From: Schmidtea polychroa | Taxonomy: Eukaryota | DNA length: 64,000 nucleotides | Direction: 5' to 3' | Assembly: GCA_044892525.1 (NCBI GenBank) | Contig: CM097885.1 | Location: 217,496,001 to 217,560,000 of the forward strand | Part shown: positions 20,220 through 52,460 of the stretch, in pieces | How positions within the stretch are numbered: position 1 is the first letter of the stretch | Layout of the letters: each line of letters opens with the position of its first letter | Translations under genes and position numbers: made by a program | The notes under the pieces: model-generated | Database searches by the model: none | Told to the model about the DNA's origin: nothing | Seen by the model: the letters and a program-made list of their open reading frames with translations, nothing else

Positions 20220-20760
20220 AACCCCAGTGGCGGTCAGGATGAAGAACAAGGATCCGATCTATGTTGATTATGATGTTTTCTCTTCTTTCGACAAACATTA
20301 GTAAAGTGTACAGCTGAATCCTTGTGTCATAACGTTGAAATTAATAAATCTTGTTGTCTTACACGTTTTCGCTCATGAATAACTAGACTTTAATTAAGTG
20401 GGTTGAGTAGAGAACCCGCCAGATCTAGTGAGAAATTCCCAATTTGTATTCAGCGAATCCTGATAAGTGGTTGTGTAAGGAAATGGACGTAAGCCCTTCT
20501 AACGGCAGTCGTGAATGGGAAGTCGAGGCCTCAGCAAGGAGTAGTTTTAAGGCAGAAGCTCACCTGCTTGTTGGCGTCTCGCCTGCATAGTGCAGTACCA
20601 ACGTGAAGTGATTCACGGGCACTATGTTGGAAGAAAGTTATGTGGGGTTTCACTCCAGGTTGACAAATCGGTGGCACCTTTTATTCGAGATGGACAATCA
20701 ACCCTTAGACCCGTCAACATGGTAGAGTGGTCAGCCGAGGTGTAACCCCAACATGATTTT

Positions 20761-20778
20761 TGGGGGCTCAGCCGGGAT
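20761..20778 (+). promoter_or_regulatory. Primer-binding site, tRNA-Pro type
   Basis: TGGGGGCTCAGCCGGGAT matches the classical tRNA-Pro PBS TGGGGGCTCGTCCGGGAT at 16/18 and starts 7 nt after the LTR end. Confidence 0.85.
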
Positions 20779-21091: not shown

Positions 21092-21577
21092 ATGACAGAA
21101 TTCGCGAACCAAATGCAACAACTGCTCAAGTTTATCGATATAGAAAACGACTCCCTAACAACACTGACGCATAAAAGAGAAAAAATCAACGCGATATTAC
21201 TGCAAGCAATCGGACAAACACCAGTCGTACCTAATCATATGATATTAGCCACAGGCCTAAGTCGCCCAGATGGAAAAATAAACCCCGAAACCGTATATCA
21301 GTGGTATCAAGAGAGATTGAACCACCCAACATTAAATCTAGATTATCAGCGTCTAAAAGACTCACTAAATACAATACCAGATGCAATCGAACAAAAAATA
21401 CAGGAAAAAATTAACCAATTACGAACTTGTATAGCCTGCAAACTCCGTCCTATTCGCGTATTATTCTTGCCGTGTGGACACCTCAGTCACTGTGAAGCGT
21501 GTGTAAAAGACCTAAAAAGATGCACGATGTGCAAATATGAAATAAAAGAGACCCATATGGTCTATTATGGCGAATGA
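21092..21577 (+). CDS. 161-aa protein with C-terminal IAP-type (C3HC4) RING finger, no BIR
   Basis: CIACKLRPIRVLFLPCGHLSHCEACVKDLKRCTMC at the extreme C-terminus. Acceptor ttttccaacag lies 2 nt before the ATG; AATAAA at 21682. Confidence 0.85.
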   Translation: MTEFANQMQQLLKFIDIENDSLTTLTHKREKINAILLQAIGQTPVVPNHMILATGLSRPDGKINPETVYQWYQERLNHPTLNLDYQRLKDSLNTIPDAIEQKIQEKINQLRTCIACKLRPIRVLFLPCGHLSHCEACVKDLKRCTMCKYEIKETHMVYYGE

Positions 21578-32900: not shown

Positions 32901-35900
32901 GATTCTGGGACAATTGGACGATGAGGGAAAAGAGAGAGTAATCGGGTATTACAGTCGAACATTCAAAAAGCACGAAAAGAACTATTCGGTAACAGAACGA
33001 GAAGCATTGGCTATAATACAAGCTATCAAACACTTCCGATATTTACTATGGGGACATGAGATATGTATAACCACAGATCATCAACCATTAGTGTGGTTAG
33101 GGCAACATAAAGAAGCGTCCAGTAGACTGATGAGATGGGCCATGCAATTGCAAGAATACTCCCCATTTATAAAATTTAAAGCGGGAAGAGCAAATGCCAA
33201 CGCCGATTGTATGTCAAGATTTATTTTCCCAGATTTGGTGGATTCAGAAATGCAACGCATATGCTTGATAGTAGCGGAAGATTTGGATTTCTGTCAATTA
33301 CGAAAGGACCAACAAGAGGACGCGGAATTAAAACAAATTATCGATTATGTAAAAACCGGAAAGACAGATGTATATGCGAAAGACCAAAAATTAAAAGAAC
33401 ATATGGATAAACACCGACACCGATATATTATAGAGAAAGATTGGTTGCTGATAATGGATGGGGAAAAACGATTAATGTGTATACCGGAAAACCGACGAAA
33501 AGAGTTACTAACGCAATATCACGATGGGAGATTGGGAGGACATATGTCATCGAAAAAGACGTTAGCAAGAATGAAACAGAAATATTTTTGGCCTACGTTA
33601 ACTGAAGATGTAACCGAATGGGTAAAAAATTGTCTAACTTGTGCAACCAGGAAGAATACTGGATCGAAATGGAAAGCACCTTTAACGCCAATGCCAGTAC
33701 CAATAGAACCAATGACAATGATATCCATGGACGTAGTTGGTCCACTACCAGAGTCAGATAAAGGAAACGTTTACATTCTAGTGATCACAGACTTTCTTAC
33801 GAAATTCCCAGAAGCATTCGCGATGCCAGACCAAAAAGCTAAAACAATCGCAAAAATTTTGGTAGAAGAGATATGTTGCCGATATGGAACACCAAAACAG
33901 ATATTAACCGATCAGGGAACTAATTTTATGAGTGAGATAATGAGCGAAGTAACAAATTACTTCAAAATAGCAAAACTAAGAACATCTCCATACCACCCTC
34001 AAACCAATGGGATGACGGAAAGATTTAATGGAACACTTATACAAATGTTATCAAATTACGTCGATCGTCACCAACGAGATTGGGACGAATATATAAACCT
34101 ATGTCTTATGGCGTACAGAATGTCAATTCACGCATCAACGAAAATGAGCCCATTTAAATTAATGTACGGAAGAGAGTGCAACATGCCAATGGACCTGGAA
34201 TACCAACCACCGATATCGCAGTATATGGAGATCGATGATTATGTTACGAAATTCAAGGAAAGAATGCAAGAAATTTGGGAAACTGCGGGATTAAATATCA
34301 AGTTCTACCAGGAAAGTTATAAAGATTTACACGATCGAAAGAAAAACGTGAAGCAACATACGTTCCAAACAGGTGATTGGGTAATGATAGAAACCCCGGA
34401 ATTAATTCCAGGAACCACAAAAAAATTACAACGCAACGGAAAAGGACCATATGAGATCTTATTCGTAGGCGAAACTAATGTAAGAGTGAAATTGGTAAAT
34501 AACCCCTTTACCAGACCAATATACGTAAACGTGGCACGATGCAAATCAATTCCGAAAACAGCCACTAGTCAACCAGAAGGCCGTACATTAACCACACGTT
34601 CGCAAACCTACCGAATGAACATGATGCAACAACTCGCAGAACCGATCACTGGACGATTAGGTATCCAACCATCAGAAGCGGAAAAGATTGTAAAAGAGGT
34701 AAAAATTAGAATACCTGGATGGGCAAAAGATCGATTAGATTTCGAAATATTAGGAGGATTATTGACGATGATCGAGAACTATGCAAATAGAGAAAGGACA
34801 CACCCATTATTGCGAGTAGTCAAAAGCCAATGGCCAATATTATTTACAATAACAGATCACTACGGAGACACACCATTACACAAACTCATGAAAGTAGGTA
34901 ACAACGAGCAAATACTAGAAACAATAGAAGCATTTCACGACTGCAAGCGATCAACAGAACAAACAAACAACCAAGGTTACACACCATTAATGATAGCCGC
35001 AAACAGAGGCAAAACAAAAGACATTATAACCGCATTACTCGATACTGGATCGAAAATAACTACACAAGACCACGGGCGGAAAAACGCTCTACATCATGCT
35101 ATCGAAGGGAGAAGTACCGAGGCGTTCACGTCATTGATGGAACTACTATCATATGAGGACAATCGAGAAGTCGGAAACATGTATGATGGATTGTTAACAG
35201 CGATCAAAGAAAAACTGACGACAATTACCGGAATATTAATTACATGGAGAAATCCAATTCAAAACGATTATATGATCAACGTAAACGAAGCGTTCACGAG
35301 AGGAGAGAACACGCTGATGAGAGAAGCTATGAAAGGACATCATTTATTCGAAATTCCGAATCAATTACTAGAACGAGGGATAAAATTCACAAATCATAAA
35401 GACGAACAGTTAGCAAAAAAGCGAATCGACACATTCGAAGAATCCCTATTCCAATTTACTAACCAAGTACGAAATAAATATTGGGAAACGGTAAGTGTGT
35501 TATATATGATGGACACAATGAACAACATCCGCGAGAATTACCTGGATATTATCCAAATACTTACAGCAGAGGAACGAATCAATAATCCAAACGGAAAGAA
35601 AACGAAAATAAGGTATGAGAAATCCAGGGAATCAAAGTCAACAACGAACCAAACGGTCACAAACAACGTCATCGAAACCAAATCAATGAGTATAGATCAA
35701 GAGGCAATAATACGCAAAGCAAAAGAAGTGTTCTTTGAGGAAATGCTAGAGCTGCCAGACGAAATAATATTGTCCAAAATAATAAAAGCCGTACACACAT
35801 ACGCAAGAGATCAAACCACGGGTTTAGATATCGGGAAAATCAAAACCTTCTTGCCTCGAGCATTTACGATGGTAACGAAGGATTCCAGAACACCCCTACA

Positions 35901-37833
35901 ACAAGCAATACTAGCAGCGAAAGAAAATAGAGCAATAACGATCATGAGAATCCTTGGAGAGATGGGCGAGGAAACCAACACGAAAAATGAACAAGGTGAA
36001 ACCGCCATGATGTATGCAGCTATAACGAAAATACACCCAAAAACACTCCACATCCTACATCAATCAGGATCGAAACTAGACGAAAGGTCCAACGAAGGAA
36101 ATTCCACCTTGGACTGGGCAACCATACAGCCAAACTTAGAAATGATCAGATTTATTTGCAAAAATGCGACAAAAGAAGAAGTTGAAAATATGTGCAAAAA
36201 CACATCTCAGTTTCAATGGAATACGGTACGGAAAAATCTAGAAGCAATGAAATTATTATTAACCTGGAGAGTACCACAAAATAATAAATATGCGATAAAT
36301 GTAAACGAATTCTACGAAAACGGAGAAAATGCGATGGTAAAGAATACCCTAACTAAGGGGGGGACGCCTAAAATTATTTTAATAGTATTAAATAGAGAAG
36401 ACCTAAAATTCACGCAAAATCAGAACGAGCAACAGCGAATTGGGAAACATCGTCGTATGCAATTGAGAGAGTTAGTTAAAGAATGGAATAGAAAGAGACA
36501 TGCTGCAACGGGTAGAAAAGAGTTTGAATTCGAAGCAAAATTAGCAAGAAACAGAGTGCTAACAGCATATCGCAGATTATTGAACGATATAAATGTCGAG
36601 GACGACATTTTAAACGACAGCGGGGGAGATAAACACGATGACAATAACGGAAAAGGCCGAAAGGAGGATAAAGAGAAAAGAGAACCGGAGGAGGGTAAAC
36701 CGGAAAACAAGGATTCGGATACGAAAAGAGAGGGAAACAGCCCGGGAACTAAGACCAAAGAGGAAGAAAAATCGAATAATGGAAAACAGAGGGTATGCCT
36801 ACCTTTCACTAACAAAGAAATAGAGACAAATATGATATTAATGATAATTATGCTTACCATGATAGAGTTAGTAACAGCTCCTGGAGGGACGAGGACGATA
36901 AAAGAAACCAAAGAAGCGGAGAATCAAGATAGCAAAGAGGACGAACTAAAACAAGAAAAGAAAAAGCAAGCACAAGAGCAGCAGTGGGATTTAAAGGAAG
37001 AATGGGATTTAAAGGAAAGGTGTATACTAGGAAGATGCATGTCTAGAGCATATCAGAAACTAGTACTGATAAATGAGGACACAGAACCAATAACAGAAGT
37101 AAGAATACAAGAAGCATACCGAAACCGAGACGGGAAAAGAATAACGAACGTTAAAGGAAAAGAGGTACACCTAGGAAAAGGTGGCGAAGTAGTAATAACG
37201 CAGCTCCAACCAAGAAAAGAGCACAAAATCTGTATTTCAAGATTAGGACCGGGTGAGAGATGCCATCAATATGTGACGCAGCAGCAGCCCCCGAAGGAAT
37301 ATACGGTTTGTATCTGGAGGAATGAATCAAAAAGAGAATGCCGACGATACCCGGGGAAAAGAGGAAAGAAAAGAAAAAACCACGACGAAAAGAACGAAGG
37401 CGGAAAGCACAAGAAAACCGGCGAGGAAGCTCAGGACAACTATGTTTCGGAGGAAGAGATGGAAAAAATACAAAAGATGGCAAAGGAGGGTATGAACGAG
37501 GAAATAGCAAGAATACGGGAAATGATGAAAGGAAATGGCAAAAGAGGAAACGAGAAAGGCATAGAAGCGATATCAACATTAACGAACAAGGAGAAACCAG
37601 AGAATATAAGCGTGAAGCAGATGATGTGGATCAGTGGGATAATAATAACAGGGGCCTTCCTAATTATAACGGGGGGAACAATAAAAATAATTAAGGATAA
37701 ACGACATCGCGGAGAACTAGAAATGACCCGAATCAGAAACTTCCAACATCGAGTGAAACGACCAAGTGATATCAAACAAGGACAGTGGGTGGAGGCCTGG
37801 AACGTTCAGCGCCCTCCAAACTCACGTATATAG
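23980..37833 (+). CDS. gag-pol: 4,617-aa single-ORF polyprotein: Gag(CA,3xCCHC)-3xUbl-Bcl2-Env-PR-RT-RNaseH-IN-ANK-membrane domain
   Basis: Continuous ORF. Catalytic motifs intact: DTG (31210), YIDD (32428), RNase H TDAS/E/TDH, integrase HHCC and D,D,E. Confidence 0.97.
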   Translation: MTNVVKTDEYKEKFRGEPFNGNANKLATFITNFEVYITVCGWTPEAISKRMPLFLCDSALEVYLEAKERDTKLEKWEDIKTFLKKTFGASKPINQALGELANRKQRANESITLYASELRRLAKKAMNGKLPEENLIGYFIEGLRREEVRASVGCQMCKTLEEAIDWATRCELHLPAQMNLMQEEGRIATAIAKADNGDNNNQEPKMNQFIPGAHQIFKPPQGRSNGNNGNRNNPNNENNFNNRRNMNDNKQCRTCGKPGHWDRDCYRNSNCNRCGRRGHTENVCQLRGCFNCGQPGHISRDCRERGQQQRPPQRNNNYIANPQRQSNPNEGKQMNVMQEISQMKQMMQQMMRPRQESAPQQTQNIRMMRSTENLNNYEVHQHVQEWQRLQAEEERIKQERNQQRQEQPLRINMMKLVKDMKSQYCYNYGKSPRVVPMTEPEKVKEITTEMKTENSTTISKGNQRIQKIFWKKIKDKIEKEHNKAKTETEDENNKSEEQTSQLNHQMLQESESEETTIFERKKLKRVPRMRNLQINMMKRTKDVASSDEEEDYVSSLGGEILQPNEISEPSKGEIKEEESGNEITSESEDEDIEIKLRKAREEAIKQVAEILPVVVRNQEFIDVIPFRRFVQKVMKLERNEKDLIPNEEKSIIKNYMEKMKQADTTRYVIKIGTSRGLERMWIKNTVTDELFDWIREHLGSSRKKEYLYQYQGEQIKPDMHLVDALIWPGETQILKLHKEKQLANLYDWAKDAKAEYDFNIKLKLEQIKQCTLRRNLDKLIKQIQEQVEDNWDLLITRRAPAMYELMSRLRDTEMLRMSDWRTINLIHKYGRLRETQPQRLEITIWLPNEEKRRIKMSNQSTVDDLVSKINQEITEKVRSESSDGMVDDVVMMYDKIILRAEDDTSLSEMGMWDNHQIIRIVPMDEFRTRDVTYQKEIRDRMKTLYQKSTEIIEIHQQWLKEKELQGKITKLNTRSCRRTPWERVWNAENKEWEIRKGIFVETDIGETESESEEEEEEPPEYEEEARGQTSDDESETDVTSESENEARHIHAMRKKEREYADMDGEEATEAREREEKERYKQLGDILAMGAKNQKRQVVALANIILKTSENIHNLRGMAKAIEEYRQYNEWYPEQLEQIIRKWRNQEWAQDTQERYHIRIKYPDKSIEELEVHPTTKIRELKKKLAYETPFHLQLFGKSLDDNADVGITPMRLEETNVLTMAETLGKPLKRKSKIIKPTKGSLSTPSPNKAPSKSNETEEVEEIILEDSDDEPGERSPLLVRWPTGAEMWTNNQPSTSYQQPTKLNIEEIIDNTTETETDEQFQKQREPTKVTPESQTDKIIDEWNEWLRNNDSSLPRTDNERNPNYENTREAGTMMEKRAKGRPKKQGEKSEFKTKEQLKQEQGQVRLEKLDKIVWDLKEAQPTIERGEKWIRELLEDMLIITNPQLRRLWQRKVASTEARQLWHTISGIIPKLIKEKTKTTKTDWDETKRVIEQLTTNANDDEHHLVVITYLMYNLMGLAARKIPNKQFANHVEMTVSIIENTIEPHIIRAGGWKRLIQAPRKNEQERSMQVRLKKLLNELEWELPMKDPASRKASINSLMMTMMIWMLCTSGATGFTIYDCDNMIMRDKYSLRDIEECRQASPNKLDIVRTKVTYHVYQESDFIRTQARECVVSKKVLAYYCGQYSYSTLILPGLDKEIVSIQREDCKELFRTGALKMHNGVTIHGQTGMIKTESVYVSGKVKSSDGSCNGGTYTIRGEVISGVVVIESYTVELKEYEAQFDANNYQMKTNPACKATENVCRTGVSTIIYEANTQKCRLQLLKSALFNEVKGEIYENENDEDGNDRVRMRNGKPMPPSPREKRLSTQKTPTALITDDPDLGMRFIKEKETTKCDSIVYKTNYAGIYMSRQIIDRAVGKIATEDVKLYLYANNKMDFLFHRGQTTLQKVYYDLIQNDCSLNKEILKTKLAIAITHPDNTMPSLPLPDGHFGRMVGEVMYTYQCTKTYARMPEKSILPEKRCANELEIRYKGQNRFVQPVTRIMNPVGFYPNLFNCSNAYGPLYERPDGKWMMLPGKTISEEPKKFGLIELATELDFKPIDVSNGGMYSPEDLETARLNVLFPARRESILSNMVTITGGTNYQSGPNYELLLSPDHFQQATSNMMKAMWGRFLVFGQMMAGILGIILIIQIVRVILTQMLACFDIYKREKKVNWKMIVGFLPFLAKTMVLHGHSKDIHRIKRLIKILTKIKGTDEEVGRRFRKVMYDEATRRQLKKNKPKFLDRFRSQSSNSDSDDDDNGNDKCLYPNRNPNEKPMETAPYWEKEKTNTWIANGSYIPPDIVGPQTALTMTQNMYPQLPSQPGMHYMPTRRTKSVDQADDVRTIAAMSLPGGPAVTVMIQINGKETNAMIDTGANVSAIAINQIPSKHWKDIESTTIHIIACSKETVDVVGRWWTTLRYQDNEIETYLAVIPKLSVPCIIGTDLMPELLKEVVIDLTTMCLKDKTGRICKMNAVIRCPEKIIVPAKSQMICQIKVDTGMEGEVIFEPSKSFEKRRELPLAREIITINQEGVIPLNITNFEEEDKIIYENEKLGRLTPMMDIELPKVTNEMIKDDELWTIDSMLLTNNEKKKLHRLLVEYKDIFAISDLDLGTCDVTLHAIPLIDETPIALRPYKLAEMQKEIAEAEVQKMLDAKVIEPSCSPWQFPVVMVKKKDGTQRFCIDYRKLNAVTKRDTYPLPDINEMLLMLQGAAYFTSLDLKSGYWQIKVKDEDKEKTAFTLGRDLYQFRKMPFGLTNAPASFQRCMNFVTHGIKQCMVYIDDLLIYSATFEQHLEDIRNVFIRLRQWKLKLKPSKCDWAKEKVTFLGHIVSAKGKEPDPRNIEKIKTCPAPKTVTQVQEFLGLCGYYRKFIKNYAGIAKPIQELVKKDISFLWGKEQQEAFETLRDKLIEAPILVHPDFKKPFLLATDASGYAAGAILGQLDDEGKERVIGYYSRTFKKHEKNYSVTEREALAIIQAIKHFRYLLWGHEICITTDHQPLVWLGQHKEASSRLMRWAMQLQEYSPFIKFKAGRANANADCMSRFIFPDLVDSEMQRICLIVAEDLDFCQLRKDQQEDAELKQIIDYVKTGKTDVYAKDQKLKEHMDKHRHRYIIEKDWLLIMDGEKRLMCIPENRRKELLTQYHDGRLGGHMSSKKTLARMKQKYFWPTLTEDVTEWVKNCLTCATRKNTGSKWKAPLTPMPVPIEPMTMISMDVVGPLPESDKGNVYILVITDFLTKFPEAFAMPDQKAKTIAKILVEEICCRYGTPKQILTDQGTNFMSEIMSEVTNYFKIAKLRTSPYHPQTNGMTERFNGTLIQMLSNYVDRHQRDWDEYINLCLMAYRMSIHASTKMSPFKLMYGRECNMPMDLEYQPPISQYMEIDDYVTKFKERMQEIWETAGLNIKFYQESYKDLHDRKKNVKQHTFQTGDWVMIETPELIPGTTKKLQRNGKGPYEILFVGETNVRVKLVNNPFTRPIYVNVARCKSIPKTATSQPEGRTLTTRSQTYRMNMMQQLAEPITGRLGIQPSEAEKIVKEVKIRIPGWAKDRLDFEILGGLLTMIENYANRERTHPLLRVVKSQWPILFTITDHYGDTPLHKLMKVGNNEQILETIEAFHDCKRSTEQTNNQGYTPLMIAANRGKTKDIITALLDTGSKITTQDHGRKNALHHAIEGRSTEAFTSLMELLSYEDNREVGNMYDGLLTAIKEKLTTITGILITWRNPIQNDYMINVNEAFTRGENTLMREAMKGHHLFEIPNQLLERGIKFTNHKDEQLAKKRIDTFEESLFQFTNQVRNKYWETVSVLYMMDTMNNIRENYLDIIQILTAEERINNPNGKKTKIRYEKSRESKSTTNQTVTNNVIETKSMSIDQEAIIRKAKEVFFEEMLELPDEIILSKIIKAVHTYARDQTTGLDIGKIKTFLPRAFTMVTKDSRTPLQQAILAAKENRAITIMRILGEMGEETNTKNEQGETAMMYAAITKIHPKTLHILHQSGSKLDERSNEGNSTLDWATIQPNLEMIRFICKNATKEEVENMCKNTSQFQWNTVRKNLEAMKLLLTWRVPQNNKYAINVNEFYENGENAMVKNTLTKGGTPKIILIVLNREDLKFTQNQNEQQRIGKHRRMQLRELVKEWNRKRHAATGRKEFEFEAKLARNRVLTAYRRLLNDINVEDDILNDSGGDKHDDNNGKGRKEDKEKREPEEGKPENKDSDTKREGNSPGTKTKEEEKSNNGKQRVCLPFTNKEIETNMILMIIMLTMIELVTAPGGTRTIKETKEAENQDSKEDELKQEKKKQAQEQQWDLKEEWDLKERCILGRCMSRAYQKLVLINEDTEPITEVRIQEAYRNRDGKRITNVKGKEVHLGKGGEVVITQLQPRKEHKICISRLGPGERCHQYVTQQQPPKEYTVCIWRNESKRECRRYPGKRGKKRKNHDEKNEGGKHKKTGEEAQDNYVSEEEMEKIQKMAKEGMNEEIARIREMMKGNGKRGNEKGIEAISTLTNKEKPENISVKQMMWISGIIITGAFLIITGGTIKIIKDKRHRGELEMTRIRNFQHRVKRPSDIKQGQWVEAWNVQRPPNSRI
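24010..24885 (+). other. gag: Gag capsid plus three CCHC zinc knuckles
   Basis: Retrotransposon-gag-like block (QRANESITLYASEL...FIEGL) and CX2CX4HX4C x3 at 24733-24885. Confidence 0.92.
25975..27639 (+). other. Three putative ubiquitin-like domains (25975-26190, 26494-26745, 27439-27639)
   Basis: Each ~70-85 aa with the ubiquitin hydrophobic pattern. Example: IEELEVHPTTKIRELKKKL...LFGKSLDD vs ubiquitin ITLEVEPSDTIENVKAKI...FAGKQLED. Confidence 0.55.
28255..28665 (+). other. Bcl-2-like domain
   Basis: Helical region ending in BH2-like HIIRAGGWKRL (cf. WIQENGGWDTF). The BH1-position segment DEHHLVVITYL lacks NWGR. Confidence 0.65.
28780..30700 (+). other. env: Envelope glycoprotein of chuvirus (Jingchuvirales) G type, with internal signal peptide and C-terminal TM
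   Basis: Signal LMMTMMIWMLCTSGATG|F, then YDC..SLRDIEEC, YYCG, LQKVYYDLIQNDCSL, GEVMYTYQC, CANEL, GGMYSPEDL..LFP, then TM WGRFLVFGQMMAGILGIILII (30484-30588) and a second hydrophobic stretch. These motifs are colinear with chuvirus glycoproteins as I recall them. Confidence 0.85.
31165..34550 (+). other. pol: Pol: aspartic protease, reverse transcriptase, RNase H, integrase with GPY/F
   Basis: AMIDTGA...IIGTD; RFCIDYRKLN, LDLKSGYWQI, PFGLTNAPASFQR, YIDD; TDAS...TDHQPL; H-H-C-C, SMDVVGP, TDQG, NGMTERFN; GPY. Confidence 0.98.
34852..36420 (+). other. Two ankyrin-repeat modules C-terminal to integrase
   Basis: GDTPLH, GYTPLMIAA, NALHHA; then RTPLQQA, GETAMMYAA, GNSTLDWA. The two modules share the tail TWRxPxxNxYxINVNE..GEN, 340 aa apart. 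Confidence 0.85.
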
Positions 37834-37969
37834 AAAGGAATATGACTGTATATAATTGTAAAAAGTAAGTATATCTTATGTATATAACAGTACTATATCT
37901 TTATATAAGCGCGGTATCAATATTATACAATAACGGGAATCATAAAATAAAACTAAATTTACATAAGAG

Positions 37970-38353
37970 TTGAAAAGTGTATATAAATTAGGAATGGATC
38001 AAGGAAATAACGAAATGAACCACAATACAGTAACTGAAGAATTATGGAAGCAACAATGTGCCGTATTAGCACAATTAGTGTCCAATTTGCAAGAACAAGG
38101 ATTGACGATGCACAGAAACCTGATCGAGAGTATGAACAGAGGATTTAGTTATTTGAAGATAATTGAAGACCAGAGGTTAAAAATCGAACAAATGCAAAGA
38201 GAGATAGAGAGGATAACCCAATATAGCCGTCGACAGGAAATTGAAATAGACCGAATGAGGGAGGAAGCAGAACAGATAGAAATAGAAGACTGGTCGGAAT
38301 GGCTAATGAATAGAGAGGAGAGCGGACACGAAGCCGACTCTTCCGAACCCTAA
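37970..38353 (+). CDS. Small coiled-coil accessory protein (probable start ATG 37994)
   Basis: E/Q/R-rich heptads; AG 2 nt before ATG 37994. Confidence 0.65.
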   Translation: MKSVYKLGMDQGNNEMNHNTVTEELWKQQCAVLAQLVSNLQEQGLTMHRNLIESMNRGFSYLKIIEDQRLKIEQMQREIERITQYSRRQEIEIDRMREEAEQIEIEDWSEWLMNREESGHEADSSEP

Positions 38354-38438
38354 ACCAAACCTAGCTTAAAATGTAAATAATTGTAAATAAAATATCGAAC
38401 CTGTATCGATAAGAACTACTTGTACATATAATTATAGA

Positions 38439-39827
38439 ATGGATAAACGACAAAGAGAAGAGTTCAGAGAGATTGTCGAGCAAGTCCGAAAATCTACAAC
38501 GATCAGAATACACAAACATGTTATGTGCGGAATATGTGAAAAGTTGTTAAAGGAACCTCACCAAACGCAATGTGGATGCCGAGCATGTAAAGAATGTATC
38601 AGTGAAGCAATAAAGAATAGACCACAGAGGTGCCCGGTGTGCAAAGAGACACTAATATCGAGTTTAGAAGACACTAACGAGGATAAAGCCGCAGTGAAAG
38701 ACATGTTAAACACCAACCTGGGATGCAAAAATGCCCCATGCGAATGGAAAGGAGTAATATGGAAGGTAGTACAACATATGGGAGAATGTATGTACAGAAT
38801 TGGCCAGTGTGAAAGGTGCCATAAAACCATTCGAGCAAGCGAAGAAAAAGAGCATCAAAGGCAGTGTGAGGAGAGATTGGAAAGATGTGAACACTGTGGA
38901 GAAATAGATACGTGGATAAATCTCACCCTCAAACATCACAATGTCCAAGAGGAGAGAGTATGTGCGGAGTTCAGTGGGGAATGCCCAAACGGATGTAACC
39001 AAGGGGAAATAATGAAGGTGGCACAGCATCTAAGGGAATGCGAAAAGAAAAGAATGACATGTGTACTAGGTAGATGGGGTTGTCAGAAATTACTACACCG
39101 AGGTGAGTTACCACATCATTTAGTAGAAAATGCTTCAACTCACGCAGAAATGTGGTCGACTGCGTTACGAGAAAGCGAAGAGAAAGTAAAACAAATGGAG
39201 ATAGAGATAACATCGTTGAAAGTGTTAGTCAAAGAACTACTAGAAGAAAGGGAAGCGTTCGAAGAAGCCCGAGCAAACATAAAGATGCAAATAAACCGAA
39301 TAGAAATCAGTAATAATCAGGCCAAGGAGCTACATCAGAAAATACGGGAAATAAATCTAAATGAGATAACCCCAACAGCACCCTACATATGGAAAATAAC
39401 GGGAGTAAAAGAAAGAATACGAAAAGCAAAAACCGGAGAAGAGACAAGAATAACAAGTCCTGCATTCCATTCTTGGAAAAATGGGTACAAAATGAAAATG
39501 AAGATATATCCCAACGGGGACGGAACCGGATTAGATACGCACTTTTCGATTTTCTTTCTATTATGTAAAGGAGAATACGACGAAATATTAGAATGGCCGT
39601 TCCAGGCAAAAATCGATATTACTCTGATGAACAACCAAAGTATACATGAGCAAAGCTTCAAAACAACGGGGAATCAAATAGCTTACCAGAGGCCCCTCAA
39701 CGAAGAAGGATCAGCAACAGGAGCACCTACGTTCATCTCACAACAAAGAGTAGAAGATATGGCGAGAAATGATACCATATATATCAAGATGACCGTGAGG
39801 AAAGAGGAGAAGGGTAGAACGGAGTAA
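38439..39827 (+). CDS. TRAF: Full-length TRAF homolog (RING, TRAF zinc fingers, coiled coil, MATH/TRAF-C)
   Basis: CGIC..L.EP.QT.CG.R.C..C..CPVC RING; repeated CxxC/HxxxC fingers; MATH motifs YIWKI, SPAF...GYKM...YPNGDG...HFSIFF...GEYDEILEWPF, GAPTFI, DTIYIK. Confidence 0.95.
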   Translation: MDKRQREEFREIVEQVRKSTTIRIHKHVMCGICEKLLKEPHQTQCGCRACKECISEAIKNRPQRCPVCKETLISSLEDTNEDKAAVKDMLNTNLGCKNAPCEWKGVIWKVVQHMGECMYRIGQCERCHKTIRASEEKEHQRQCEERLERCEHCGEIDTWINLTLKHHNVQEERVCAEFSGECPNGCNQGEIMKVAQHLRECEKKRMTCVLGRWGCQKLLHRGELPHHLVENASTHAEMWSTALRESEEKVKQMEIEITSLKVLVKELLEEREAFEEARANIKMQINRIEISNNQAKELHQKIREINLNEITPTAPYIWKITGVKERIRKAKTGEETRITSPAFHSWKNGYKMKMKIYPNGDGTGLDTHFSIFFLLCKGEYDEILEWPFQAKIDITLMNNQSIHEQSFKTTGNQIAYQRPLNEEGSATGAPTFISQQRVEDMARNDTIYIKMTVRKEEKGRTE

Positions 39828-40020
39828 CCAATCGAATAATGTGGTATATAATAATCTGTATATATCGGTGTATATAACCAATAAAATATTATATAATAAT
39901 AGTATGAAAACCCTAAATACGAAAACCCAAAAATGATGCGAAAATTCCCCAAGAAACAGTAAATAATGAATAAATTCCTTTTTCATAATAAAAAGATTAA
40001 TCGATGTCTATGATTTAGAG

Positions 40021-41076
40021 ATGACACAAGAGAAAATAACCGAAACTGCGATAGACCCAACCAAGGTCAACAAGACACAAATTCCCCGAGAACATAACAA
40101 AAAATGGAACAAAGTAATGTTCCAACTAACTAATCTCACCCGAAATCACATCGAAGAAACTAGAGAAGATGAGAATAGTCAATACCAATGGTTAATACAC
40201 AACTTAAGAGCGGAAGCAGAAGCATGCAAAAGAGCATCAAAATGGGCGTCACTGGAAAATACCCGCCAAGAAGCACACAGCCACTACTTAAAGCAGCTGG
40301 TGCAGGAAGCGAGAAAGAGACTTACCGATGAGAACACCAAGCGCGAAGCGGAAAAACAAATAGCAGACAGGAAAATGATGCACTTAGTGGCAGAAGCGAG
40401 GAAATGGAAAAGACAAAACAGAGAAATGAAAAAAGAGATGAAAGAATTGCCCATGAGACTCGGATATGAAAGCGAACAAGGTAAATGGGAGGAGAATTTA
40501 ATAATAAAGGAAGAATTGAAAAGGTTGAGAAAGGTCGCCGCCCGAAGCCAAACCTGGCAAACAAAGGCTATGGAGTTTGAGCGACATTTGGCAATGAAGT
40601 GCGACATAAGAGAGCACGAGAATGCCGCAATGGAAGAGATGATAACCCAACAAGCGGGACGGGTTGTGGAATTAGTAAATCAGGTAGAAGAGATGAAAAG
40701 AGACCTTAATGGATTACAAGGATCGCTGGAACAAAGAAACATGGTCCTAGCGGGAAAAAACAAAAAATTAGAAAACGAAAGGAAAATGTACACCGAAAAT
40801 ATTAAAAACTTAGAAATAGAAATTGAAAAATGGAAGGGCGACGAGAAAGTCAAGGCCCTAGACAAACAGATAGAGGCGAAAGATGAAGAGACAAGGTATC
40901 TCACCTATCTGCTCGACGAGGAATTGAATATCACTCGAGCTCTAAGAGACGAAGTTAGTGAATTGAGAGCTCAAATTCCCCAATATTACCTACCATACGA
41001 CCCTATTGCGATACAGTTACATTCCGCGGTCGATAGTGATGAAGGTTATGTAGGCCAGGAGGAAACCTTCGTATGA
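40021..41076 (+). CDS. 351-aa long coiled-coil accessory protein
   Basis: Intact ORF with continuous charged heptads; no recognisable catalytic motif. Confidence 0.75.
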   Translation: MTQEKITETAIDPTKVNKTQIPREHNKKWNKVMFQLTNLTRNHIEETREDENSQYQWLIHNLRAEAEACKRASKWASLENTRQEAHSHYLKQLVQEARKRLTDENTKREAEKQIADRKMMHLVAEARKWKRQNREMKKEMKELPMRLGYESEQGKWEENLIIKEELKRLRKVAARSQTWQTKAMEFERHLAMKCDIREHENAAMEEMITQQAGRVVELVNQVEEMKRDLNGLQGSLEQRNMVLAGKNKKLENERKMYTENIKNLEIEIEKWKGDEKVKALDKQIEAKDEETRYLTYLLDEELNITRALRDEVSELRAQIPQYYLPYDPIAIQLHSAVDSDEGYVGQEETFV

Positions 41077-41245
41077 GGGTGGATGAAAAGATGAAAAACT
41101 AAAAACCGGGACGTATATCCCAAACAAAAAAATTAAAGTACAGTAAAAGTATTTGAGGGACTGTAACCCTGTGTAAATAAAAACGATATAAATGTATAAG
41201 TATAAGTCGCACTGTAGCGCATGATTAATTGTAAATATTATAGAT

Positions 41246-41944
41246 ATGAAAATCGAGGAAATGATAGAAATTATGAGCGACGTAGAAGAGGGAGAGATTG
41301 AGGCAGAAACAACAGAAACACAAACGCTAAAGGCCGAGTTACGGGAAGAGAAATACGAAAACGGGAGATTAATAAACAAATACCTGGAGGACCGGAAAAT
41401 GATAAAGGTGTTAAAGAAAGAGTGCGAAGCGTTGGGGGAAATAAAAAGAGAAGCGGAAGAGGAAAATGAATGGCTACACGAACAAAGGAAGCGAGGGAAA
41501 AACTGGGAAAAGATAGCGGAAGAACTATGGAAAGAGAGGGCAAGCTTCAAAGCAAAGGAGGTAATCCAAGACTACTGGAAAACTGAGGCGAAGGAGCGCC
41601 AAACAGCTATAAATAAATTAAAACGACCTCTAGAAGAAAACCAACGGGAAAGTAAAGAAATGAGGAAGTGGGTCCGCAAATATAGAGAAATAGAAAGAAA
41701 ACATCAACAACAAAATTACCTGCAAGAAAACGAACAAGATCTCCTACAAATCGAGCTAAAAAGAAACCTTGAAAAGAAAAGGGAAGAAATTAGACGCTTG
41801 GAAAAAGAAATTAGACATCTAAAGAAAGAAGCCCGTGAAAAAGACCGACAATTGGAAATGCTGCCCGAGTTAAGACACAGGGTAATTAAAGCAGAGTCCA
41901 CCTTGATGAGAATCGGCGAAAATAATCCAAATCAGAACCATTAA
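41246..41944 (+). CDS. 232-aa coiled-coil accessory protein
   Basis: Intact ORF, E/K/R-rich heptads. Confidence 0.75.
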   Translation: MKIEEMIEIMSDVEEGEIEAETTETQTLKAELREEKYENGRLINKYLEDRKMIKVLKKECEALGEIKREAEEENEWLHEQRKRGKNWEKIAEELWKERASFKAKEVIQDYWKTEAKERQTAINKLKRPLEENQRESKEMRKWVRKYREIERKHQQQNYLQENEQDLLQIELKRNLEKKREEIRRLEKEIRHLKKEAREKDRQLEMLPELRHRVIKAESTLMRIGENNPNQNH

Positions 41945-41984
41945 ATTAAGGGTCATTAAAACCAATTGTAAATAAACATAATGA

Positions 41985-42653
41985 ATGTATAATAGTATCA
42001 TGCGAGGCGAGATGATGATAACAATGATGGTATTGATGATTCTGATGGAGAGCAAACCAATAGACGCCCAACCGAAAATAGTACGAGATTATCGAAATCA
42101 AAATCAAGAACCTAAACAAGAATCCGGTCAATGCACATACCCGATGACCGTAAAAACCCATATCATCCAAACCATTCAATCAACCCGATCACACATCAAC
42201 AACATCCAAACAATGTGTAAAAAGAATCCCATTTGTAAAATGATAAACAAACAAATCCTCGAACAAATCCAACAATTCGACCAGTTGGAACAACAAATGC
42301 AACAAGAGAATTTTGGAAATCTGGTAGAAAAGCCAAAAATACCTCCCGAAATCAATGACACCCATTATCTCATATATGTGGTGATCGCAGAAACCCTCCT
42401 CCTATGTCTACCAATATTCATGAAAATTTACGAAGTTCGAAATAGATGTAGAGTCTCGACATCAATAAGAGTAACCTCGAACCAAAATCCTCAAGAAGTG
42501 CCCCTGACAAATCTTAACCCAACCCCATTCCGACCTCGAACCCCGAGTAATCAACCAATCCAGCCGAAATCTAATAGTCAGACCTATCTCAACATTAATA
42601 CCCAAACCAACCAACAGCCGCCAGCAGAAGCATCAATGGTTAACAGTTCATAA
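41985..42653 (+). CDS. Type I membrane protein (signal peptide, Cys/coiled-coil ectodomain, TM, Pro/Gln-rich tail); probable start 42000
   Basis: MMITMMVLMILM..IDA|Q signal, 3 Cys, NDT sequon, TM YLIYVVIAETLLLCLPIFM. AATAAA at 42760 is followed by a GU/U-rich tract. Confidence 0.75.
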   Translation: MYNSIMRGEMMITMMVLMILMESKPIDAQPKIVRDYRNQNQEPKQESGQCTYPMTVKTHIIQTIQSTRSHINNIQTMCKKNPICKMINKQILEQIQQFDQLEQQMQQENFGNLVEKPKIPPEINDTHYLIYVVIAETLLLCLPIFMKIYEVRNRCRVSTSIRVTSNQNPQEVPLTNLNPTPFRPRTPSNQPIQPKSNSQTYLNINTQTNQQPPAEASMVNSS

Positions 42654-42878
42654 ACTCTAACTCAAACATTTGTGTTATTATATGTGGAAACTTTTATTGT
42701 ATGTACAAACTATCACCTTAAGTGATACTTGCTTGATCTTGCTTTGACCTTGATCTTACAATAAAAATTTTATCATTGTTGTATAATTTTCGTGTTCGTG
42801 TTATATTTTTTTTTGAATGAATGAATTAAGTTAATTATGCAATTGCGGGACGCAATTTTGATGGGTCCCCGAGTGATT

Positions 42879-45800
42879 TGTTGGGCTGAGTCGAAAATTT
42901 AATCGTTGAAAAATAAGAAAGTAGGGAAGTAGAACATTAAGAAAAATAAAAATAAAATAAATAAAATCAGAAATAAAATAGAATAAGGTATAAGGAAAAT
43001 AATAATTAAGACATAAGAATTAAAACAAAAAATAAAATTAAGAAAAGATTAAAATAGAACAAGTTGACAAATAAATAAAGAGGAATTCAAGAAATAATAA
43101 GGAAATTAAGGAAATAAATAGAAAAACATATTAAAAATAAAGAAAATAAGGAGAAAACAACCTAAAAACAAGAAAATTATATTAAATTAATAGAAATAAG
43201 CGGTACTCAACTCTGATTGGTCCGCACAAATAAGAATTTGATATATATACAACTACCAAAAACATTAAATTTACTGTTAACCCCGAGCATTTCATAGGTA
43301 AGAAAAAATGTTTACTGTTTTGACTGTTAACCCCGAGCATTTCATAGACATCTACAACTCACGGAGACTTATTTCAAGGATCAGCAATACAAGTAGAGCA
43401 ACAGTTAATTCGAAAAACTTCACAGCAATTCGAACTCAGTCACAGCAATCGACATTCGACGAATTATCATCAGACTAATTTGGAACGACTAACGTTAATT
43501 TTCCGATTCAGCCTAATTCCATAGTAAGGGATTTTTATTTATGATATTGTTTTTCGAAGTTAATAGTAAATATGTATATTTAATGAGTAATTAAACTTTT
43601 AAATTTAACCAGACTCTCTTTTCATTTGATCCTGAATAACGATTTTGATAAAGTAAATAATTTAAATGTTTAAAAGTATGTGTTGGTAACAGGTGAACTC
43701 TTACATAATTTTTATGGATATTTATTTTGAAGTGATAGTTTTATGATTTCTAATATTAACGAGTAACGTGGAGTTGAGATACTCCATGTCATGGTATGAG
43801 GTGCCTTCGGGAGCTCAGCCGGTGGACATGGAGTATTTCAATCACGCAGCTAGATTGGGCCGAAATGTGAAGGCTTCTTCACGGGTCCAATTGCTGAAGG
43901 ACTTAAAATCTGTCAGAGTACCGAAATATAGACCGAAAGGAAACCTTATGAAATTTTCGAAAATAGGATATGTGCTTCACAGCGACTGAGGGAGTTCTCA
44001 TATTAACTCTGTATTGTCCAGAGTCGTCTTACAAGACATTCATGCCACTTCTGTCTATAAATCCGAACTTACCATGTGGGGGAAAATACCATTAAACATC
44101 CATCGCTGGTTTTTCCAACATATCGAGAAGTTGAAATTGCATTCGGTAGACTTTTGAAAAAGTAAATCTAATTTAGGTCATCTCTTTCAGATGCGACATC
44201 CAAATCTTAGCATATGATGAGGAATTTACAATAAAGGAAAAGTAAAACATAAAACCACAATAATACTGTATTCAATCACATATATTAACAAAATCTGGTA
44301 ATACCCATTGAATAATTTTCATGCTGTTGCGTCGAAATATCCACTACTGAAATATGCTTCATAGAGTCTAGTTGGCTGGTTCGTAGAGATCTTCCATCGT
44401 TCAAAAGCATCCAATATTGAGGAAATTACGAGTCGTAGTAAATAAATCCAACATCATAAGCTCAGATGGGAATCGACACGCGATGTAACATTTGCAGTTC
44501 GCTCAGTACGGTTGATAGTTACAGATAAAATTTCCATCGAATAGGCACCCATACATACAGACATACTGCTAACATAACTATGAGTAGCGTCATCCGGTCA
44601 GAAATATGCATGAGAAACAGCAGAATCATTCCGAATGCCTCTCACCGCAGGGAATGCCGCCATGTGTCACCCTCTCTAGGATTCTTAGTGTGTGAGTAGT
44701 AATCAGTGGTCCTATTAGATAATGCTGACATGAGATGTGACTTCCAGATGACTGACTCTTAAATTTCACTACTGATAAAGGCCATTCGTACCACTAAAAA
44801 GATAAGCCAAATAACCAGTAACCGACTACTAAGATAAGGGACTCTCTAAAGTGCACTCATTAAAGATAATTTTGCTTAAATTAAATATTCTAATTAAAAA
44901 TCGAAATTGTTGAAGGGGTATTTTAATTAATAACCGAAAATTCAAACCAAACTTTATAACTAAACCATAGGAAGTTTTACCTAAGTGTTGTAGAGGTTTA
45001 TCGTAATTCTAATTAGATGTTACAAATAATAGTAGTAGCCTTCGAGCCAAATTTAAATTAACTAAAGTATCTACAGGAATTTTTGGGTTATAAAATAGCT
45101 AGTAATATTGTAGTTAAATTTCTCATATTCCCTGTAAATGACGTATTGTAATAGAAAACTAAATCCGATAACAAATTATTATGTAATTACAATATTTTTA
45201 CGATGCTATATTTCTACGACGATATCACCGTATGGTATGGATAAGGGGTAATCATAAAATAGTGACGTATAGTTTATACGAAATTACGAGTTGTTACTTA
45301 TTCCGCTACTTGAGGTAAGGGTGCAAGTTTTTACTAGTTGCATTTGGTCCAAAAACCTTATTTTGCATTAGAATAACAACAAATAATCAGCGAAATTTAA
45401 ACGAAGTGTCGTATAGTGTATTTGTAATGAAACAGGGTTATTCGCTCCGGTATGAATAAATCCGTAAATTGCCTTTATGTGCGATAGATAGAAATCCAAC
45501 TCGAACGCGATAGACGAAAATTAAAATTTTTACAAATAATTTGCATTCGTCAGGGAAGCAATCAGGGCGTTGGGGAATAATTTTCAGTAAAGGATACGTA
45601 AAATATTAGTAATCAAGGGTGAAGGGAGGGATCCTGTTTCATCGACTCGTCTTGTTTTCTTCCAGCACTAAGTATCCAATAGCGAATAAACCGTATATCT
45701 GATCCGAAATTTTTAGATATAGTCACCATAGTTTTCTTCTTTAGCCATCCATTATGTTATCAAACAACAAATCAGCTCTACGTCCCTGCTTCTCCTGCTC

Positions 45801-47040
45801 AGATAAAAATGCAGTGATTAAAGATCTTCAAGCCCAGATCGGTCGATATAAACGAAAAATCGACGAGCTGGAAGGGACATGGTTTAGTCCCGCTCGGATG
45901 AAGGAGATCCAAAAGAAGCTCGATCGTAGCGAGCATTGCCGGGACGCGCTAATATCTGAGAGCCGTGCCCAAAGAAGTCTAATCAGAGAACAATCCGAGG
46001 CACTGCATAAGGTTTACGTGCAGGCGGCTACAACCCGAAAAATTGTGCAGATTCCCATCCGAGAGGCCGATGACATCTTTCCGCCTCATCACAACCTTTC
46101 CTCGAATCCATCTCCACCGTTCAAGAGACCGTGCCGAGACTGCGTCGAAACCGAATTTTCCCCCAAGCGACCAGATGTTGTCGTCACGGGTACCAGTAAG
46201 CCCCCCAATGCTAGTCCATCTGTATCAGTCACCCTTCTGCAAGTGGCATCTTCAAGCAAACCCAAGCGCAAACAACTCTCTCGTGCGGAGCGCAAGAAGA
46301 GACAGCGCGAACGCGCCACTACCAAGCCAAACATCCCATCAATAGAGGACTCAACCAACGGTGGCAACTCTCACGTGTCCATCAACCTAACAACGGGACC
46401 CTCAGCGCGAATCATATCAGCCGCTGGCGTAACGTGGGAAGAGAACGCTTCCGAGTTTTTTAACCTCGACGAATTATTCGCCGACGCTGAATGGGAGAAA
46501 CAATAAAACCCCAGTGGCGGTCAGGATGAAGAACAAGGATCCGATCTATGTTGATTATGATGTTTTCTCTTCTTTCGACAAACATTAGTAAAGTGTACAG
46601 CTGAATCCTTGTGTCATAACGTTGAAATTAATAAATCTTGTTGTCTTACACGTTTTCGCTCATGAATAACTAGACTTTAATTAAGTGGGTTGAGTAGAGA
46701 ACCCGCCAGATCTAGTGAGAAATTCCCAATTTGTATTCAGCGAATCCTGATAAGTGGTTGTGTAAGGAAATGGACGTAAGCCCTTCTAACGGCAGTCGTG
46801 AATGGGAAGTCGAGGCCTCAGCAAGGAGTAGTTTTAAGGCAGAAGCTCACCTGCTTGCTGGCGTCTCGCCTGCATAGTGCAGTACCAACGTGAAGTGATT
46901 CACGGGCACTATGTTGGAAGAAAGTTATGTGGGGTTTCACTCCAGGTTGACAAATCGGTGGCACCTTTTATTCGAGATGGACAATCAACCCTTAGACCCG
47001 TCAACATGGTAGAGTGGTCAGCCGAGGTGTAACCCCAACA
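42879..47040 (+). repeat. 3' LTR (4,162 bp)
   Basis: Matches the 5' LTR; ends CCCCAACA followed by TSD CCCG. Confidence 0.97.
45754..46506 (+). CDS. 3' LTR copy of the 250-aa LTR protein
   Basis: Identical to 19467-20219 except one D>N change. Confidence 0.8.
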   Translation: MLSNNKSALRPCFSCSDKNAVIKDLQAQIGRYKRKIDELEGTWFSPARMKEIQKKLDRSEHCRDALISESRAQRSLIREQSEALHKVYVQAATTRKIVQIPIREADDIFPPHHNLSSNPSPPFKRPCRDCVETEFSPKRPDVVVTGTSKPPNASPSVSVTLLQVASSSKPKRKQLSRAERKKRQRERATTKPNIPSIEDSTNGGNSHVSINLTTGPSARIISAAGVTWEENASEFFNLDELFADAEWEKQ

Positions 47041-52258: not shown

Positions 52259-52460
52259 TTTAAATATTTGTTTGGTTTTGGTATTAGCTTATGAAACTAT
52301 TTATATTATTATATAATACTTATATTCAAACAATTAAATAAAGTTTTTATTTTTTAAATATTATTAAATTGTTTTAAAATTTAATAATTTATTTTATAAT
52401 TTTCACTAGTTTTTAAAATTTATAAAAATTGTAACTTTTGTGTTATTTAAAATATTTAGG

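Follow-up and report, generated by a model that had tools for sequence, protein, structure and literature searches.

The accessory gene cassette of a planarian LTR retroelement carries a Pumilio-type motif together with an AG at its internal junctions, and this pair of signals is conserved in three element families and absent from host controls. The element was analysed in a window of 64,000 nucleotides, the whole stretch of DNA under study, in which all features given below lie on the forward strand. Tentatively, we prefer the reading that each accessory protein is produced from its own mRNA, in which a short LTR leader would be cis-spliced to the AG, with leaky internal 3′ ends. The two-signal junction is kept although the accessory proteins share less than a third of their residues, and it provides exact sites.

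Identity and architecture of the element

The element in the window is a young Burro-type Gypsy LTR element of planarians with a length of 30.4 kb (30,449 bp in total), the assignment to Burro/GYPSM1 resting on the published description of length, LTR size, polyprotein order and cargo domains. The 5′ LTR (16592..20753) has TG...CA ends and a 4-bp target duplication (CCCG), and is 99.95% identical to the 3′ LTR (42879..47040), both having a length of 4162 bp. The primer-binding site (20760..20777), which we take to be of the tRNA-Pro type, is common to families A (the window element) and B and near-identical in family C; no tRNA genes were found in the window. A census of 16 spacers was based on a single copy from each of families A, B and C; family D is a further family.

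An LTR ORF of 250 aa (19467..20219) is followed by a RING ORF of the IAP-type C3HC4 (21092..21577), past which AATAAA occurs at 21682/21720 with a U-rich tract downstream. ORF1 (23980..37833) encodes a polyprotein of 4617 aa with Pfam matches to Gag, CCHC, Env fusion protein, PR, RT, RNase H, IN and ankyrin, in which Gag, CCHC and then PR-RT-RH-IN are arranged in the Burro order. The Env fusion protein (PF24664; E 2e-70, best stretch at residues 1868-2207) is located in frame between gag and pol. Ubiquitin-like and Bcl-2 matches in ORF1 are weak (E 0.0066 and 0.032) and below the curated cut-offs. The cargo domains of the window element are ankyrin, TRAF and RING (Pfam), and BIR was found in family C only. 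Among LTR retroelements, Burro elements are the largest known, and they carry cell-death and signalling genes. In planarian stem cells, they belong to the transposons with the highest expression (PMC6884822).

Accessory ORFs and spacers

The original prediction of five same-strand accessory ORFs separated by AT-rich spacers was confirmed: the spacers before the ORFs are 160, 85, 193, 169 and 55 nt long with 22-31% GC, and the lengths over families A, B and C are 55-220 nt. Spacer 1 (37834..37993) contains TGTATATA at 37847, 37879 and 37978, a donor-like GTAAGT at 37865, a candidate poly(A) site near 37940 and an acceptor-like TAG ending at 37991. It precedes ORF A (37994..38353; 119 aa), for which no Pfam match was obtained and which has an identity of about 31% to its family C counterpart. 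Spacer 2 (38354..38438), with a tandem TGTAAATA at 38372/38382, TGTACATA at 38421 and a TAG ending at 38437, leads to a full, intronless TRAF gene (38439..39827) consisting of RING, zinc fingers, coiled coil and MATH, of which RING and MATH were matched by Pfam; a zf-TRAF match was found in the family C copy, and a homolog search with the TRAF gene returned no match. Spacer 3 (39828..40020) harbors TGTATATA at 39857/39869, three AATAAA and a TAG ending at 40018, and is followed by ORF C (40021..41076; 351 aa), a likely coiled-coil protein as judged by eye. In spacer 4 (41077..41245), a polymorphic TGTAAATAAA at 41172, TGTAAATA at 41230 and a TAG ending at 41243 were found; ORF D (41246..41944; 232 aa) is likewise a likely coiled-coil protein. 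Spacer 5 (41945..41999) has TGTAAATAAA at 41967, a TAG ending at 41995 and an in-frame ATG at 41985, 5′ of the AG, which is missing in family B. The last ORF, E (42000..42653), has a hydrophobic N-terminus as judged by eye, and one membrane segment is predicted by hydropathy in families A, B and C.

The terminal spacer (42654..42878) contains no TGTAHATA and has a conserved hairpin 5′ of the 3′ LTR. Its host-like poly(A) signal, which had been predicted past the last ORF as AATAAA at 42760 with a GU-rich tract, was verified with a U/GU-rich tract of 17 T in 30 nt. Between families A, B and C, the identity of the accessory proteins goes down to 22-33%. Within family A, 28 close copies differ by 1.2% in coding sequence and 2.9% in the spacers, and are therefore too alike for selection to be shown from them.

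Acceptor-like AGs before the start codons

An AG had been noted 0-4 nt before each start ATG, and this was verified for all five ORFs (37990, 38436, 40017/40019, 41242 and 41994), an arrangement reached in 0 of 5000 dinucleotide shuffles. In the census, an AG is located 0-4 nt 5′ of the ATG in 16/16 spacers, with 14 TAG and two AAG, so that 14/16 have a YAG (P 3e-5, 3e-3 and 1e-3 in dinucleotide shuffles for families A, B and C, respectively). The host tubulin acceptors are similar in type (12 TAG and one CAG, n=13), and such a YAG precedes the ATG in just 3/42 non-Burro ORFs. For three of four spacer pairs between families A and C no alignment was obtained, and the AG is nonetheless kept. Furthermore, a CAG takes the place of the TAG in some family B copies as well as in family D, which speaks against a function as a stop codon. 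Acceptor-like words are rarer than expected in ORF1 (20 observed, 31 expected, P 0.01), as is GTAAG in the accessory ORFs (0 observed, 3.7 expected, P 0.018). These sequence comparisons support the view that the cassette AGs behave as functional splice acceptors resembling those of the host.

The RING and LTR ORFs had been described as sharing this layout. This holds for the acceptor-like CAG 2 nt 5′ of the ATG of the RING ORF and fails for the LTR ORF, whose acceptor-like TAG lies 9 nt and not 0-4 nt upstream. Past the stops of both ORFs, the recurring TGTAHATA is absent.

A Pumilio-type motif after the upstream stop codons

TGTAHATA is enriched in the five spacers (11 sites, 0.6 expected, 0/4000 shuffles), and on the sense strand of the remaining 25 kb of the element it does not occur. 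It starts 14-30 nt past the upstream stop in 13/16 junctions (mean 18.8, SD 4.1 nt), whereas its distance to the next ATG varies from 33 to 205 nt (SD 54 nt). In families A and B, the C-D junction (spacer 4) is the only one at which no motif lies close to the stop. Over all sites, 29 are sense and one is antisense; position 5 is free and positions 6-8 are mostly ATA (28, 21 and 27 of 30). The motif was found neither after terminal or 5′ ORF stops (0/8) nor within 35 nt of host tubulin ends (0/61). Its enrichment had been overlooked in the original prediction, which did list three identical copies of TGTAAATAAA; these were verified at 38382, 41172 and 41967, are unique in the window and were obtained in 0/5000 dinucleotide shuffles of the spacers.

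One multi-exon gene with PUF repeats was found in the host. The Pumilio element consensus is UGUANAUA (PMC11182014), and TGTAHATA fits it in being on the sense strand, past the upstream stop and free at position 5. Judged by sequence, TGTAHATA is a likely Pumilio element, and it is the conserved junction signal in place of AATAAA. If true, such an element past the internal stops would tie the cargo of the retroelement to a stem-cell RNA regulator.

AATAAA and internal 3′ ends

An AATAAA had been assigned to each spacer as a poly(A) signal. The hexamers are present (37946, 38386, 39987 with further copies at 39880 and 39969, 41176 and 41971), but seven copies compare with 5.3 expected (P 0.28) and all five spacers contain one in 9% of dinucleotide shuffles, so this part of the observation is no more than chance. 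The hexamer at 41176 is kept in 9/28 other family A copies and replaced by ATTAAA in 17 of the 27 parsed, and 2/16 spacers have no conserved hexamer. The 30 nt downstream of the spacer hexamers contain 6-10 T, compared with 17 at the terminal 42760. In ORF1, AATAAA is not depleted (17, 19 expected). As a conserved junction signal, AATAAA was ruled out, being unenriched, shifting or vanishing, and having no U-rich downstream element. Of the signals proposed originally, the AGs and TGTAAATAAA exceed chance and the AGs are conserved; for AATAAA neither applies, and the conserved signal is instead the stop-anchored TGTAHATA.

Two single-event hints at internal 3′ ends were obtained after the pol stop, one of them away from the proposed AATAAA, and none for spacers 2-5. 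In run X6, one contig terminates, about 107 nt past the pol stop, in a run of 21 A or more; it has a depth of 6.6 and an A-rich template and may result from internal priming. In family D, 1/7 copies breaks off 50 nt past the pol stop into 24 A. With one event each in a contig and a genomic copy, internal polyadenylation in the spacer after pol is weakly shown. The family D copy was also considered as a LINE-type retrocopy, which was rejected due to the presence of both LTRs and the target duplication.

Genomic poly(A) fossils of the cassette were searched with three patterns. The tandem-motif pattern gave no match, the spacer-1 pattern gave one (an A-run inside an intact copy), and TGTAAATAAA followed by an A-run gave 83 matches at 13 places, with no fossils among the six places examined. 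A-runs of genomic origin are also found in these spacers.

Expression of the accessory genes

According to the cis-splicing reading, the AGs before the ATGs would be used as 3′ splice sites and the donor would lie in cis, similar to the arrangement known from the adenovirus late unit and from complex retroviruses. A putative LTR promoter and first splice donor were located at 16929..17060 (ATTGG at 16929, TATATA at 16955, donor at 17011), and this region is a candidate for the common leader. Positions 17011-17060 form a 50-nt intron-like unit, the final 25 nt of which repeat the end of exon 1. The LTRs of families A, B and C all have a TATA-like box and a cap-proximal donor-like site. Of the two routes considered originally, spliced-leader (SL) trans-splicing and alternative splicing combined with internal polyadenylation, the latter has a slightly better fit because all three families keep this donor. 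As the spacer poly(A) sites have no U-rich downstream element, they would be leaky, and the polymerase would often read through to yield genomic RNA. A PUF protein bound beyond the stopping ribosome may set the dose or stability of the RNA of the upstream ORF and possibly shields read-through RNAs from nonsense-mediated decay.

The transcript contigs, which are sparse, assembled and presumed to be RNA (four runs searched, of which two gave none; coverage gaps not counted), show neither the SL nor the LTR exon joined at these AGs and no splice junction to an accessory acceptor, none of six joints being GT..AG. Contigs over spacers 1, 2 and 4 cross the AG unspliced, and in two shortened copies of family B the deleted segments are not bounded by GT..AG. 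Cis-splicing would need introns of 21-25 kb in which closer acceptors and two poly(A) signals with U-rich tracts are bypassed, whereas the host introns seen have 40-55 nt; the first LTR donor has its own acceptor just 50 nt away. Overall, the original interpretation of monocistronic accessory mRNAs is partly supported, by the acceptor-like AGs, the host SL genes and the two 3′-end hints, and lost AATAAA as its signal.

A true operon, whose RNA would be cleaved and polyadenylated spacer by spacer while a host SL is trans-spliced to the next AG, thereby resolving six cistrons, is possible but rather doubtful. It would dispense with the 21-25 kb introns, and seven SL RNA genes with a GT donor were identified in the host among 34 matches. 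In several SL-bearing host copies the ATG lies 0-6 nt after the SL, and the candidate poly(A) site is located about 50 nt 5′ of the first acceptor. With 55-220 nt, the spacers are in the range of flatworm operons, for which distances of up to 300 bp and, in S. mansoni, an intercistronic median of 99 bp are given (PMC12582326). Likewise, C. elegans Cer1 is described as having an SL1-spliced short mRNA besides an untouched 8-kb RNA (PMC3315495). Against this, 0/27 SL-bearing genomic copies, a small sample found with the exact 24-mer only, continue into an element ORF, three of them having element-like matches at least 229 nt away, and no SL-like ends are present among the loose ends listed (12 of 114; 7 of 15). 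Strong donors for cis-splicing are located upstream, among them the GTAAGT that families A and B have in spacer 1. Just 7/16 acceptors match UUNYAG, the SL acceptor motif of flatworms, and the two spacers without a conserved hexamer also count against the operon. Whether the AUG within the SL is in frame with the ATG does not discriminate between the models, since out-of-frame gaps occur in SL copies of the host too. Slightly more doubtful still is the fuller picture of an enveloped retroelement with a six-gene operon run by the SL machinery of the host. Its junctions would be cut, polyadenylated and SL-capped, so that TRAF, IAP and the membrane protein each come from an mRNA of their own; a Pumilio site past every internal stop would tie the dose to the stem-cell state, and read-through would yield the 26-kb genomic RNA.

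The motif could also be a nuclear 3′-end enhancer whose UGUA pairs are bound by CFIm and activate non-canonical poly(A) sites, the splicing part remaining the same. UGUAN elements are able to direct processing where a hexamer is missing (PMC2876958), a CFIm25-like gene is present in the host, and the motifs are paired and restricted to internal junctions, where the signals are weak. We consider this unlikely, since the ATA constraint at positions 6-8 exceeds the need of CFIm, the distance of the motif varies to the two candidate cleavage sites (~93 and ~30 nt) but not to the stop, and UGUA is not enriched at host sites in planarian 3P-seq (PMC5068929).

It is slightly less probable again that each spacer is a small internal promoter, with the accessory ORFs as separate transcription units and the AG incidental. 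Tandem motif copies are spaced by 9-13 nt, about one helical turn. TGTAAATA contains the core of a forkhead-type site, and TGTATATA is similar to a TATA box. The TATA and forkhead words alone are unenriched, however (P 0.10 and 0.06), the motif is anchored to the upstream stop and not to the downstream ATG with a sense ratio of 29:1, and the AG in 16/16 spacers would be left unexplained. Least probable is one polycistronic RNA with stop-restart at TAG-ATG, or chance signals of AT-rich DNA: most AGs are TAG, read-through contigs exist and AATAAA is at chance level, but TAG is replaced by CAG and AAG and never by TAA or TGA, the upstream stops are 55-220 nt distant, and chance was rejected for both AG and TGTAHATA by shuffle tests and controls.

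Comparison with known systems

In complex retroviruses and the adenovirus major late unit, one leader is spliced to an acceptor directly before each ORF; adenovirus has several internal poly(A) sites, and retroviral mRNAs share a common LTR 3′ end. We know of no Pumilio-type site after each internal stop in either scheme. If cis-splicing is true, this would be a retroelement with adenovirus-like multi-acceptor splicing; if SL trans-splicing is true, a retroelement using SL operons.

The closest known system is Burro/GYPSM1 of planarians, which in the available part of its description shares with the window element a length of >30 kb, multi-kb LTRs and a single Gag-Env-Pol polyprotein of ~4600-4800 aa, in which env is inserted in frame after gag and ahead of pol (PMC6431247). 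The cargo is also alike, comprising ankyrin, TRAF/MATH, RING, BIR (family C) and accessory ORFs. Unlike in that description, the TRAF gene forms a complete ORF of its own downstream, and ORF1 of family A gave no MATH match. The same part of the account is silent on accessory ORF expression and junction signals (PMC6431247). The literature searched contained no account of Burro accessory gene expression; Grohme 2018 and Rossi 2014, outside this search, may describe Burro transcripts or SL targets.

Flatworm SL operons resemble the cassette in having same-strand genes <300 nt apart and a YAG before the downstream gene, but consist of host genes, mostly in pairs; the available parts of these reports mention no further enriched motif near the SL acceptors (PMC12582326, PMC8629364). 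For the shGAG RNA of plant Ty1/Copia, the available part of the source describes splicing coupled to internal polyadenylation, with U1 restraining premature ends to yield genomic RNA (PMC5580714). The GTAAGT of spacer 1 could act like this restraint site, whereas the Ty1/Copia RNA is a 5′-end Gag-only RNA with no accessory gene array in that account. Finally, Cer1 of C. elegans is a Gypsy LTR element in an SL-using host, with a spliced short mRNA occurring with and without SL1 and splice sites skipped for the long RNA, as far as the available part of its report goes (PMC3315495). Cer1 has one subgenomic mRNA with the SL at the 5′ end, whereas the window element has five or six downstream cistrons with an acceptor each.

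Structure and copies of the element

The cassette of five accessory ORFs following ORF1 (37834..42780) is part of an LTR element of 30,449 bp (16592-47040), with a 4 bp target duplication and LTRs of 4162 bp each that are 99.95% identical. ORF1 encodes 4617 aa with Gag, zinc knuckles, a viral fusion protein, protease, RT, RNase H, integrase and ankyrin repeats. The second of the accessory ORFs encodes a complete TRAF. From 1008 candidates, at least 29 cassette copies with 98-100% identity were found in the genome.

Between the RING ORF and ORF1 (22158-22669) lie about seven 74-nt leader repeats, each with a donor-like GTAAG. A perfect 7-bp hairpin (42840-42856) directly 5′ of the 3′ LTR, where a polypurine tract is expected, is common to the element's own family A and the related families B and C (L052, L085, L092). 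The element is neighbored by a homeobox-like exon (4579-5422) and, on the minus strand, by an intronless frame of 432 codons (50990-52288), which by eye resembles a ubiquitin-specific protease. A solo LTR (~55250-59380) of a family-B-related lineage contains an intact LTR ORF (55761-56588, minus strand) with 55% identity over 101 aa to that of the element.

Conservation of the ORF junctions

All coordinates of the original prediction were correct on re-check. The AG directly before five of five ATGs and the three copies of TGTAAATAAA in the spacers are non-random, each recurring in 0 of 5000 shuffles. As close copies are too similar to be informative, diverged families of the same genome were compared. 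The cassette of family B is ~75% identical; in family C, RT identity is 82-88%, that of the accessory proteins is 22-33%, and a BIR-RING gene is additionally present.

The junction census covered 16 spacers from one copy each of families A, B and C, of which A and B are mutually non-independent. An AG is located 0-4 nt 5′ of the ATG in all 16 spacers, as YAG in 14 (P = 3e-5, 3e-3 and 1e-3 for A, B and C), and the motif TGTAHATA lies within 35 nt past the upstream stop in 13 (P < 1e-5 per family). Three of four A-versus-C spacer pairs align near the shuffled level, and therefore the signals survive without overall sequence similarity. In the small, env-bearing family D (RT 50%), the junction between pol and the single accessory ORF downstream carries TGTATAAA at +21 and TTTCAG 3 nt upstream of the ATG. 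The arrangement of signals at the junctions is genuine, and its conservation is deep.

Family C carries TRAF and BIR-RING as genes of their own and, in addition, a MATH-like match within the polyprotein region (L095 8270-8712; L092 2715-5458); given this combination it may be nearest to the published Burro1. In the family D copies (L049, L051, L057, L059, L061, L063 and L066), the 1.5-3 kb before the 3′ LTR vary despite young LTRs. This region is flanked by a 14-nt inverted repeat with a variable A-run after the first arm; routine capture of host DNA is possible.

Putative splice acceptors

The cassette AGs (14 TAG and 2 AAG, n = 16) resemble in sequence the host acceptors of 13 tubulin introns (12 TAG and 1 CAG), with a U-richness of 0.42, below the 0.50 of the host. 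A stop codon role of the TAG is disfavored because CAG variants of the cassette acceptor exist. A comparable YAG was found in only 3 of 42 unrelated ORFs. Very probably, the cassette AGs serve as splice acceptors.

The TGTAHATA motif

TGTAHATA is an enriched spacer word (11 sites vs. 0.6 expected), which is absent from the sense strand of the element's other 25 kb; TGTAAATAAA is this motif overlapping a hexamer. Measured from the stop, the motif starts at 14-30 nt (mean 18.8, SD 4.1); the distance from its start to the next ATG is 33-205 nt. Its orientation is sense in 29 cases and antisense in one. A motif start at +14 or beyond would clear the terminating ribosome. Among 30 TGTA sites position 5 is variable, being A, C or T among copies of a single orthologous site, while positions 6-8 are A in 28, T in 21 and A in 27 sites. 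An exception is the C-D junction in families A and B.

The motif was found at none of 8 terminal or 5′ ORF stops (one stop with too little sequence omitted), at none of 42 other ORFs used as control, and within 35 nt of none of 61 distinct host tubulin ends, drawn from 70 loci and in a few cases finishing at introns instead of true stops. Matches to the tubulin C-terminal domain number 102 in the host genome, and many of these are highly diverged and have long C-terminal tails.

In sequence, TGTAHATA matches the Pumilio element, given as UGUANAUA in PMC11182014, and a PUF gene is present in the host. The main alternative, a CFIm site, is opposed by the absence of UGUA enrichment in planarian 3P-seq (PMC5068929).

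Candidate internal 3′ ends

For the most part, the poly(A) hexamers of the original prediction are not the signal; they are unenriched in three families and shifted or lost between copies. AATAAA in all five spacers is at chance level (9% of shuffles), and its count of 7 is no excess over the 5.3 expected; across families it occurs in 14 of 16 spacers (P = 0.09, 0.51 and 0.26 for A, B and C). Of 28 further family A copies, 9 retain the hexamer at 41176; among 27 parsed copies, 17 carry ATTAAA instead, and family B has neither at this position. In family B the 37946 hexamer is shifted in three of four copies and missing in the fourth. The spacer hexamers look weak because a U-rich downstream tract is lacking (6-10 T in 30 nt vs. 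17 at 42760).

Cleavage after pol is suggested by two events, each seen once. In the first, a contig of run X6, presumably RNA, follows spacer 1 to 37931, continues with nine family-B-like letters and ends in at least 21 A. This candidate poly(A) site near 37940, which may be internal priming, is located ~50 nt 5′ of the acceptor and upstream of the predicted hexamer. The second comes from family D: in one of seven copies, whose two LTRs are intact, the sequence stops 50 nt past the pol stop, ~16 nt beyond AATATA, and gives way to 24 A. A search for similar traces at the remaining spacers found none. In family C copies (L092 7172 and others), a genomic run of 12 to >50 A starts ~27-35 nt past the ORF C stop; it may represent the fixed remnant of a poly(A) tail or a site for poly(A)-binding protein.

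Origin of the splice donor

The original prediction offered SL trans-splicing or alternative splicing. Contigs assembled from four runs, of which two contributed nothing, contained 6 joints, none GT..AG; no SL or LTR exon occurred among the loose ends listed (12 of 114 and 7 of 15), and run X1 contigs are unspliced across spacers 1, 2 and 4. We tentatively favor cis-splicing from an LTR donor to the accessory AGs: in families A, B and C, the LTR contains a donor-like site downstream of a TATA-like box, and in A and B a putative intron of host size lies at this site.

SL trans-splicing onto these AGs appears rather unlikely. In its favor, the cis route requires introns of 21-25 kb, spacer lengths and the 50-nt gap suit flatworm operons (PMC12582326; PMC8629364), and Cer1 is a precedent for SL use (PMC3315495). 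The host carries planarian SL1 genes, and 34 exact SL matches comprise 7 SL genes and 27 copies fused to other sequence, none of which continues into an element ORF. According to PMC12582326, cis- and SL trans-splicing can use common acceptors in flatworms.

In three LTR lineages (16986-17060; L042 ~7630-7705; 58850-58775, minus strand), the last part of the first intron-like unit (~50 nt) duplicates the end of exon 1. The repeated sequence differs among them, and family C is without the repeat. Many of the 27 fused SL exon copies (L098-L131) have a common short upstream flank and a group of ~9 has the downstream sequence in common, a pattern which suggests that a mobile element captured and spread them.

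Comparison with known elements

The gene content of the element matches planarian Burro/GYPSM1 (PMC6431247). A literature search of limited depth found no account of Burro accessory gene expression; stem cells contain abundant Burro RNA, which is under PIWI control (PMC6884822; PMC8532177). Among other elements, weak internal signals are described for Ovex1 (PMC2717909), and in Ty1/Copia splicing is coupled with internal polyadenylation (PMC5580714).
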